A stretch of DNA of 64,000 nt from Alphaproteobacteria bacterium (GCA_965229605.1 OZ245892.1:72102-136101); one strand, 5' to 3'; positions 54,297-54,567 are shown, counted from the first letter of the stretch. The notes: a model not told the origin generated them from the sequence alone. A program made the numbers and translations.

Positions 54297-54383
54297 TAGA
54301 GGGTCATATTTCTTTTAAAAAACCATAGCGGGTCCTGCCTCAAATCTCAACTGGCTCTTTAAACAGGCGTTTTGATCCTTAAA

Positions 54384-54496
54384 ACCGACAAAATGTCGGT
54401 TGAAGAGTCGGAAAAAGCAAAATTTTCTTAAACATTTTCAAGCAATAAGAAAAAAAGATGTCAATTTCCGACAATTTGAAGGTCAACCGACATTTT
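54384..54496. promoter_or_regulatory. divergent promoter region with repeated TCAACCGACAtTTTG operator-like sites
   Basis: 54384..54402 ccgacaaaatgtcggttga is itself a hairpin and is the inverted copy of 54482..54496 tcaaccgacattttg (17/19 match). A third partial direct copy, ccgacaatttg, is at 54467..54477. All lie between the PfkB-ispE operon and the SznF-like operon. Confidence 0.5.
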
Positions 54497-54567
54497 GCTG
54501 GATTGTGCAAGAGGTCTTTAAATTATAGGTGGTTATATAAAAGAAAGATTAACTATAAGGACGTTTT

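Follow-up and report, generated by a model that had tools for sequence, protein, structure and literature searches.

Several local regulators of the Lrp/AsnC family are encoded divergently from the genes that they control: AsnC and asnA in E. coli, BkdR and bkd, DadR and dadAX, KynR and kynBU, and PA2577 and PA2576 in Pseudomonas, and PutR and putA in Agrobacterium and Rhodobacter. Such regulators typically control the neighbouring operon as well as their own gene (PMC8707732). The sites bound by Lrp-type proteins are imperfect inverted repeats of 13-17 bp with an AT-rich centre, clustered and with centres two or three helical turns apart (PMC2995911). Among them are the boxes of archaeal Ss-LrpB and the 13-bp palindrome of FL11 (PMC2995911; PDB 2E1C family). 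Enzymes of the SznF type make N-nitroso and N-N-bonded compounds, and more than 400 cryptic clusters encode SznF homologs (PMC10849742). We found no literature linking these enzymes to a regulator, nor any treating SznF and AsnC together (a review of heme-oxygenase-like diiron (HDO) proteins and the chalkophomycin paper hold nothing on regulators), and no published description of the box consensus CCGRCA-N3-TGYCGG.

We analysed a window of 64 kb (the whole stretch of 64,000 nucleotides), in which a 286-bp, A/T-rich intergenic region (34% G+C), running from the start of pfkB (ATG 54281, - strand) to the ATG of a sznF-like gene (54568), carries an array of palindromic boxes (Table 1). We consider it quite likely that this is an Lrp/AsnC-type binding array for a cassette of sznF-like, Rieske and permease genes, the putative regulator being assigned by adjacency and geometry. 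The orthologous loci resemble the local Lrp/AsnC systems in having a small Lrp/AsnC gene divergent from the operon, a short intergenic region filled by clustered imperfect palindromes, and a target made up of amino-acid-related enzymes and a transporter; because the palindromes fill the short divergent intergenic region, control of both the regulator's own gene and the target is expected in these orthologs. The window differs from the local systems in having no regulator gene, an unrelated pfkB-ispE operon taking the place of the divergent AsnC gene, and in the box sequence itself, which would be bound upstream of an N-N-bond-forming SznF-like enzyme. The likeness extends to the archaeal sites, which share the inverted repeat of 13-17 bp with an A/T-rich centre and the several regularly spaced boxes on one face of the helix, with centres two turns apart; moreover, the regulators beside the orthologous boxes are closest in sequence, among solved structures, to FL11/PH1519. 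Unlike FL11 and Ss-LrpB, which have A/T-rich half-sites, the window has G+C-rich half-sites (CCGRCA), a bacterial setting of the sigma-70 type and an extra distal, perfect box 83 bp away.

Table 1. Boxes, candidate promoter elements and genes at the sznF-like locus, in coordinates of the window.
Feature	Coordinates	Strand	Basis or remark
ispE (4-diphosphocytidyl-2-C-methyl-D-erythritol kinase), 3' of pfkB	52247-53185	-	NCBIfam NF011202, 219.9 bits against a cut-off of 204
pfkB-family sugar kinase, 364 aa, divergent neighbour	53187-54281	-	Pfam PfkB; under every NCBIfam equivalog cut-off
Predicted pfkB/ispE promoter, -35 TTGAGA (54350-54345), -10 TATGGT (54327-54322)	54322-54350	-	Consensus scan
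O0, doubtful weak box CAGGCG-TTT-TGATCC	54364-54378		PWM score 9.1; poor consensus match; low confidence
O1, perfect palindrome CCGACA-AAA-TGTCGG (19-mer AACCGACAAAATGTCGGTT)	54385-54399		23.6 bits, best in the 64-kb window
O2, CCGACA-ATT-TGAAGG, distal box of the promoter-proximal pair (ortholog S1)	54468-54482		15.2 bits, third in the window
O3, CCGACA-TTT-TGCTGG, proximal box of the pair (ortholog S2)	54487-54501		18.0 bits, second in the window
Candidate -35 TTGTGC, sznF-like operon	54503-54508	+	Inferred; 1 bp (A54502) beyond O3
Candidate -10 TATAGG (alternative TATATA/TATAAA, 54534-54541)	54524-54529	+	Inferred
sznF-like, 507 aa, heme-oxygenase-like diiron and cupin domains	54568-56091	+	Pfam PF14518, 1.7e-29; Cupin_2
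Weak box-like GCGACACTTTGAAGG, within the sznF-like coding region	54620-54634		93% identity to O2 over 14 nt
Small Rieske [2Fe-2S] gene, probable ATG 56145	56127-56504	+	Pfam Rieske, 5.7e-06
Amino-acid permease, third cassette gene	56491-58056	+	Pfam AA_permease_2, 2.2e-30

An earlier, sequence-only reading of this DNA had described an operator-like array built around a 15-mer present twice in inverted orientation. The inverted pair is real: pattern search finds TCAACCGACATTTTG exactly twice in the 64-kb window, at 54389-54403 (- strand) and 54483-54497 (+ strand), 1-5 nt away from where it had been placed (54384..54402 and 54482..54496). The left copy had been called a hairpin in itself, and it does sit within a perfect, hairpin-capable palindrome (CCGACAAAATGTCGG, 54385-54399); the third, partial copy (CCGACAATTTG), given as 54467..54477, is present at 54468-54478. 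The further CCGAC cores that had been mentioned can be counted: there are five CCGAC or GTCGG cores, including an extra GTCGG at 54407, against 0.17 expected from shuffles (five or more in 0 of 5000) and a window-wide mean of 0.59 per 286 bp. A repeat search extends the inverted pair to arms of 22 nt, separated by 79 nt, with 86% complementarity. Of 5000 dinucleotide-preserving shuffles of the 286-bp region, two gave an exact inverted repeat of at least 15 nt whose arms are separate.

What did not hold is the pair of 15-mers about 100 bp apart as the unit of the array. In L093, a strain from the same ENA sample, the substitution C54484T breaks TCAACCGACATTTTG and leaves O1-O3 intact, so the exact 15-mer is not the conserved unit. 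The true unit, as we read the sequence, is instead a 15-bp palindrome of 6-3-6 geometry, CCGRCA-N3-TGYCGG, with an A/T-rich centre, which occurs three times (O1, O2 and O3). From centre to centre, O2 and O3 are 19 bp apart, O1 and O2 83 bp (about eight helical turns) and O0 and O1 21 bp. The box-like GCGACACTTTGAAGG within the sznF-like gene has three mismatches to the consensus and lacks comparative support, and is probably there by chance.

The surroundings of the boxes hold two other repeats. The A/T-rich spacer that separates O1 from O2 contains a near-palindrome with one mismatch (AAGCAAAATTTTCTT, 54415-54429), similar to the E. coli Lrp SELEX consensus; it could be a site for a global Lrp or a chance occurrence in A/T-rich DNA. 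An outer inverted repeat (54306-54325 and 54530-54549, 17 of 20 positions complementary, arms 204 nt apart) encloses the whole array. This degree of pairing was unreached in 150 mononucleotide shuffles; the repeat is probably not functional, because its left arm is replaced in L093.

The gene assignments of the sequence-only reading were correct for ispE and for the SznF-like protein, which has the HDO and cupin domains and shares 41-55% identity with over 100 homologs, including one that its source names nitrosourea synthase. Its gene has a ribosome-binding site, AAGGA, at 54557-54561. Compared to most homologs (about 460-475 aa), the window protein has some 40 extra N-terminal residues ahead of the conserved RRxxRPQD, in the region 54568-54810; the start at 54568 is the one served by this good AAGGA site. 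The Rieske gene lies between the sznF-like and permease genes and overlaps the start of the latter; it was left uncalled by gene finders in the sister strains, and its CPH...CPWH ligands are intact. Because a Rieske homolog directly follows the sznF-like gene in nearly all of the 80 loci compared below, this protein is probably the dedicated electron donor of the SznF-like enzyme. An orthologous permease follows the sznF-Rieske pair in L007-L012, L017, L030, L087, L088 and L091. The conserved cassette is made up of the sznF-like gene, the small Rieske gene and the amino-acid permease, the last in the alphaproteobacterial clade. On the other side, a DUF6898 gene shares the - strand with pfkB and ispE. 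None of the other sznF-like loci contains pfkB, ispE, the DUF6898 gene or the methyltransferase gene. Shared control of the pfkB-ispE operon, which the sequence-only reading had put forward, thus lacks comparative support, since pfkB and ispE are in no other sznF-like locus. Elsewhere in the window, the lowest G+C content (0.425 vs about 0.54) is found at 14001-16000, around a methyltransferase gene (14800-15624, - strand), which may be a separately acquired segment.

To compare the region with distant relatives we used 80 sznF-like loci of about 13 kb each, obtained from a scan of species-representative genomes. The nearest orthologs outside the cluster of sister strains are at most 55% identical. 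The seven closest loci come from an alphaproteobacterial MAG (L007), four Azospirillum/Azospirillaceae, a MAG labelled Magnetospirillum, the intergenic region of which is nearly the same as that of A. brasilense (L011), and a Flavobacteriales MAG. The degenerate consensus CCGRCANNNTGYCGG, with up to two mismatches, showed no upstream enrichment over the 80 loci (ratio 0.95), and outside the closest clade it is likewise unenriched upstream of sznF-like genes. This degenerate sequence is common in G+C-rich genomes and was replaced by matrices and two rank tests, which avoid circularity. With a matrix built from the window only (O1-O3), the best match of the whole locus falls 89-242 bp upstream of the sznF-like match in six of the seven closest loci (L007, L008, L010, L011, L012 and L014), and in only 5 of the 73 others, a share close to the one that chance would give (about 3.8% per locus). 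Conversely, a matrix built from the other taxa only ranks O1, O3 and O2 first, second and third across the 64-kb window.

The sequence-only reading had staked its proposal on conservation of the motif in orthologous intergenic regions, and the motif is found there at the equivalent position. These regions (126-180 bp) are otherwise unalignable with the window, yet they carry the CCGRCA-N3-TGYCGG box: CCTACATTATGTAGG and CCGACATTTCATAGG in L007, CCGACAATCTGTCGG in L010, CCGGCAATCTGCCGG in L014, and similar boxes elsewhere, including the metagenomic lineages L087, L088 and L091. The operator-like character of the array is borne out in this respect, as at least eight further lineages, all well diverged, keep the motif upstream of their sznF-like gene. 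The geometry is kept too. Boxes come in pairs 19-21 bp apart (20-21 bp in the orthologs); such pairs are found in the window, L007, L009, L010, L011, L014 (two pairs) and L087 (20 bp), and by eye L091 has a second box about 21-22 bp downstream. In seven of nine lineages the centre of the proximal box lies 68-74 bp before the ATG (74 bp in the window; 68-73 bp in L008, L009, L010, L011, L014 and L087). The window boxes have the centres AAA, ATT and TTT, and most ortholog centres are A/T-rich too, the exceptions being GGT (S2 of L009) and TCT (S2 of L010).

Comparison within the species is too shallow to reveal selection on the boxes (strains L001, L002, L092 and L093). Several strains of the source, an uncultured and probably alphaproteobacterial organism, come from one ENA sample and are 98-99% identical, and L001, L002 and L092 are uninformative because they are 99% identical; O1 is the same in all four. 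L093 differs from the window in an uneven way. Its sznF-proximal 215 bp have just four differing positions, and the stretch matching window 54299-54342 (2736-2775 in L093) is heavily rewritten: it has a 4-nt indel and about 26 differences, and its only conserved islands are those of the predicted pfkB -10 and -35 hexamers. Positions 54377 and 54379, in the O0 region, also differ in L093, and L001 and L002 have a smaller variable patch at 54333-54343. The two also part ways past the permease (L093 6739-7524 compared with window 58066-59149), where L093 has a + strand gene of more than 746 aa in place of the methyltransferase and CarD genes. The cassette thus ends on its right side at a point of strain-level rearrangement.

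The position of the boxes relative to the promoters bears on the sign of regulation. The candidate -35 of the sznF-like operon was not picked up by the consensus promoter scan. The sequence GGATTG(T/C)(G/A)CAA directly 3' of the proximal box is common to the window and L007, where the candidate -35 reads TTGCAA. By eye, the window, L009 and L010 each have an element like yTATnG about 21-24 nt past the proximal box; its counterpart in L011, TTGTAG, is looser. With TATAGG as the -10, O3 would be centred near -42, O2 near -61 and O1 near -145; with the alternative -10 all boxes would lie about 10 bp further upstream. Either choice would leave the boxes upstream of, or abutting, the putative sznF-like core promoter. 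On the pfkB side, neither O0 (about -56) nor O1 (about -77) overlaps the predicted promoter; both lie upstream of it. The sequence-only reading had the copies bracketing one or both divergent promoters, as a repressor operator pair or a looped regulatory region. The orthologs have the equivalent of the O2/O3 pair directly upstream of the sznF-like core promoter, and in the window O1 is upstream of the predicted pfkB -35 rather than over it, so that bracketing fails for both. We found no support for a loop, nor for the repressor label: a site adjoining the -35 would suit an activator at least as well, and a repressor there may act by occluding the -35. A terminator and a sigma-54 promoter were rejected from the sequence.

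A pointer to the family of the binding protein comes from the neighbours of the boxes. An Lrp/AsnC-type gene divergently adjoins the sznF-like gene in all seven closest loci, as well as in L087, L088 and L091, and the co-occurrence is strict: every motif-bearing locus except the window has such a gene next to sznF-like. In L089 and L090 a LuxR/GerE regulator holds that position and the motif is absent; loci without any adjacent regulator also lack CCGRCA. The motif tracks the AsnC gene and not sznF-like as such. Other HTH genes occur inconsistently: L003 has an HTH_3 gene about 3 kb upstream, and L091 has, beyond AsnC, an HTH_3 gene and an HTH regulator of the sugar-binding kind. The regulators beside the orthologous boxes are true Lrp/AsnC proteins, their nearest solved structures being FL11/PH1519, M. 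tuberculosis LrpA, E. coli Lrp and AsnC. The boxes themselves agree with the known sites in size and centre (15 bp, 6-3-6, within the 13-17 bp range and A/T-rich) and in clustering (several imperfect boxes, with pair centres two helical turns apart). As a separate observation, the LuxR/GerE-type genes (L089 2846-3709; L090 784-1647) are divergent in place of AsnC; the lineage has a protein 48% identical to that of the window and no Rieske gene called, and here the regulator has been exchanged independently.

A second, more distant AsnC subfamily, found in Pseudomonas, Jeongeupia and related loci, goes with another palindrome of the same 6-3-6 geometry, TAGTGA-N3-TCACTA. It is present in 26 of the 29 loci that have this subfamily (25 of 28 identified by tblastn, plus L020, where AsnC was identified by HMM). 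The carriers are L016, L018-L021, L023-L026, L029, L031-L032, L034-L038, L040-L041, L043-L047 and L049-L050. In 25 of these 26 it has no second match in the 13-kb locus, and its distance upstream of the sznF-like match is 150-228 bp in every case; the AsnC gene itself is found either some 660 bp upstream or some 5 kb downstream. Three Photobacterium loci (L055, L059 and L064) have an AsnC gene and lack the exact TAGTGA-N3-TCACTA.

The Lrp/AsnC gene that lies divergent at every other motif-bearing locus is missing from the window. No such gene was found in the 64 kb by tblastn, and an HMM built from 35 locus-encoded AsnC proteins gave nothing at E<=10 in the six-frame ORFs of the window. Of the 63 window ORFs, 38 were scanned against Pfam, which turned up an RpoH-like sigma factor, CarD, PhoU and YbaB but no specific transcription factor; a search with an HTH-only profile returned short fragments and no candidate regulator. 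Among the best 120 of 625 database matches to a profile of the sznF-linked AsnC subfamily, none was assigned to the source genome or its sister strains. The array is therefore a local orphan: either a regulator gene outside this locus supplies its protein, or nothing does. That gene may be a more distant paralogue or sit on a different replicon; alternatively, the regulator may have been lost recently.

This absence could mean that the array is a relic, i.e., that the cassette and its operators were transferred horizontally, that the AsnC gene was lost or replaced by pfkB-ispE, and that the boxes bind nothing. Expression would then be constitutive, if a repressor was lost, or silent, if an activator was lost. 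The results of the regulator searches agree with such a history, as does the fact that, of about ten motif-bearing lineages, the window alone has no adjacent regulator; the sznF-like segment also has a G+C content of 0.485 vs about 0.54 in its surroundings. Against a relic, the boxes are the best preserved of all lineages, with a perfect O1. They score as high as, or above, those of loci that keep the regulator (Table 1), and hence show no decay. The sznF-like, Rieske and permease genes are intact in all strains seen, and the profile search covered the best 120 of 625 matches, leaving room for a gene on another replicon. We regard the relic as unlikely, and it concerns whether the array still works in this genome, not what the array is. 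It is more doubtful that the array is an orphan that still functions, with pristine operators kept, the regulator subfamily lost from the 2.7-Mb genome, and a resident global or paralogous Lrp having taken over. If so, a horizontally acquired N-N-bond-forming cassette would be wired into the feast/famine network of the host, possibly with the essential ispE operon included, via O0 and O1 at their positions upstream of the pfkB promoter.

Other explanations replace the Lrp/AsnC protein with another binding protein or with an RNA. The GAC...GTC core of the boxes loosely recalls IscR/NsrR sites, and the pairing at about 21 bp recalls ARG boxes, which are 18 bp long, have TGAAT/ATTCA half-sites and are paired with centres about 21 bp apart. 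The details differ: the core spacing is 5 nt here vs 7 nt in the IscR type-1 consensus, Rrf2 operators are palindromes of 23-25 bp, and neither the half-site nor the 6-3-6 spacing is like an ARG box or an IscR type-1 site. As a candidate, the ARG-box pair was rejected, since 54360-54510 contains no TGAAT...ATTCA half-sites and resembles it only in the pair spacing of about 20 bp; no argR gene tracks the motif. The chemistry would suit such regulators: arginine derivatives and N-nitroso compounds take part in that of SznF (PMC9679993), and ArgR likewise has a tie to arginine metabolism. Across lineages, though, only the AsnC-type gene tracks the motif, the other HTH genes of these loci being inconsistently present, and a change of AsnC subfamily goes together with a change of palindrome at unaltered geometry. 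No Rrf2 gene was found beside the orthologs or among the 38 of 63 window ORFs scanned against Pfam, which included no other regulator of these kinds either. It is thus very improbable that the array serves an NO- or Fe-S-sensing Rrf2 protein (NsrR/IscR-like), ArgR or a dimer of the GntR/TetR type. We give even less credence to an element acting as RNA, in which the inverted copies would pair in a long 5' leader or the palindrome hairpins would form an attenuator or stability element, and to its variant, a MITE-like insertion with 22-nt terminal inverted repeats. A 206-nt region does fold at -48 kcal/mol (z = -4.35 vs shuffles), with the O1 and O3 arms paired, and the length and complementarity of these arms would fit both versions. 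The fold follows from the boxes, because any two copies of a palindromic box can pair. The orthologs have adjacent boxes only, in their shorter intergenic regions, and no equivalent long-range helix, and the boxes lie upstream of the putative core promoter. O2 and O3 keep the left half-site and lose self-complementarity, which suits recognition by a protein better than a stem. There is no Rfam match at gathering score in the whole window (54200-54700 gives only chance-level matches, E>1), and a tRNA scan found nothing. As for a MITE, no target-site duplication flanks 54382-54504, no second copy with up to two mismatches occurs outside the locus in the 64 kb (the sole match with two mismatches, 53760, is inside pfkB), and the motif is kept at the orthologous position in distant taxa.

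Returning to the Lrp/AsnC array, we propose that a dimeric, oligomerising regulator of this feast/famine family would bind the boxes, the array belonging to a mobile three-gene cassette. The tandem O2/O3 pair, two helical turns apart, would hold the protein against the putative -35 of the sznF-like gene, and O1, 83 bp above O2, could be occupied by additional dimers within the same tetramer or octamer, so that the A/T-rich spacer is bent. A ligand resembling an amino acid, for which our guesses are arginine and its methylated or oxidised forms, would switch the complex, thereby setting the level at which the cassette is transcribed. By analogy with AsnC, BkdR, PutR, DadR and KynR, we lean slightly towards ligand-dependent activation, with repression a serious contender.

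For the window, the element is of a well-known kind, an ordinary regulatory site with one curiosity, the missing regulator gene. What is new, besides that absence, is the specific motif and its apparent generality across SznF-like cassettes. The comparisons suggest that in many Proteobacteria, and in at least one Flavobacteriales MAG, a minimal cassette is under the control of a dedicated, amino-acid-responsive Lrp/AsnC regulator. One hint from this is that the cassette imports an external amino acid and converts it, and does not serve a secondary-metabolite pathway of the classical kind. The two concrete operator consensus sequences, CCGRCA-N3-TGYCGG and TAGTGA-N3-TCACTA, are handles for finding the inducer and switching the cassette on.
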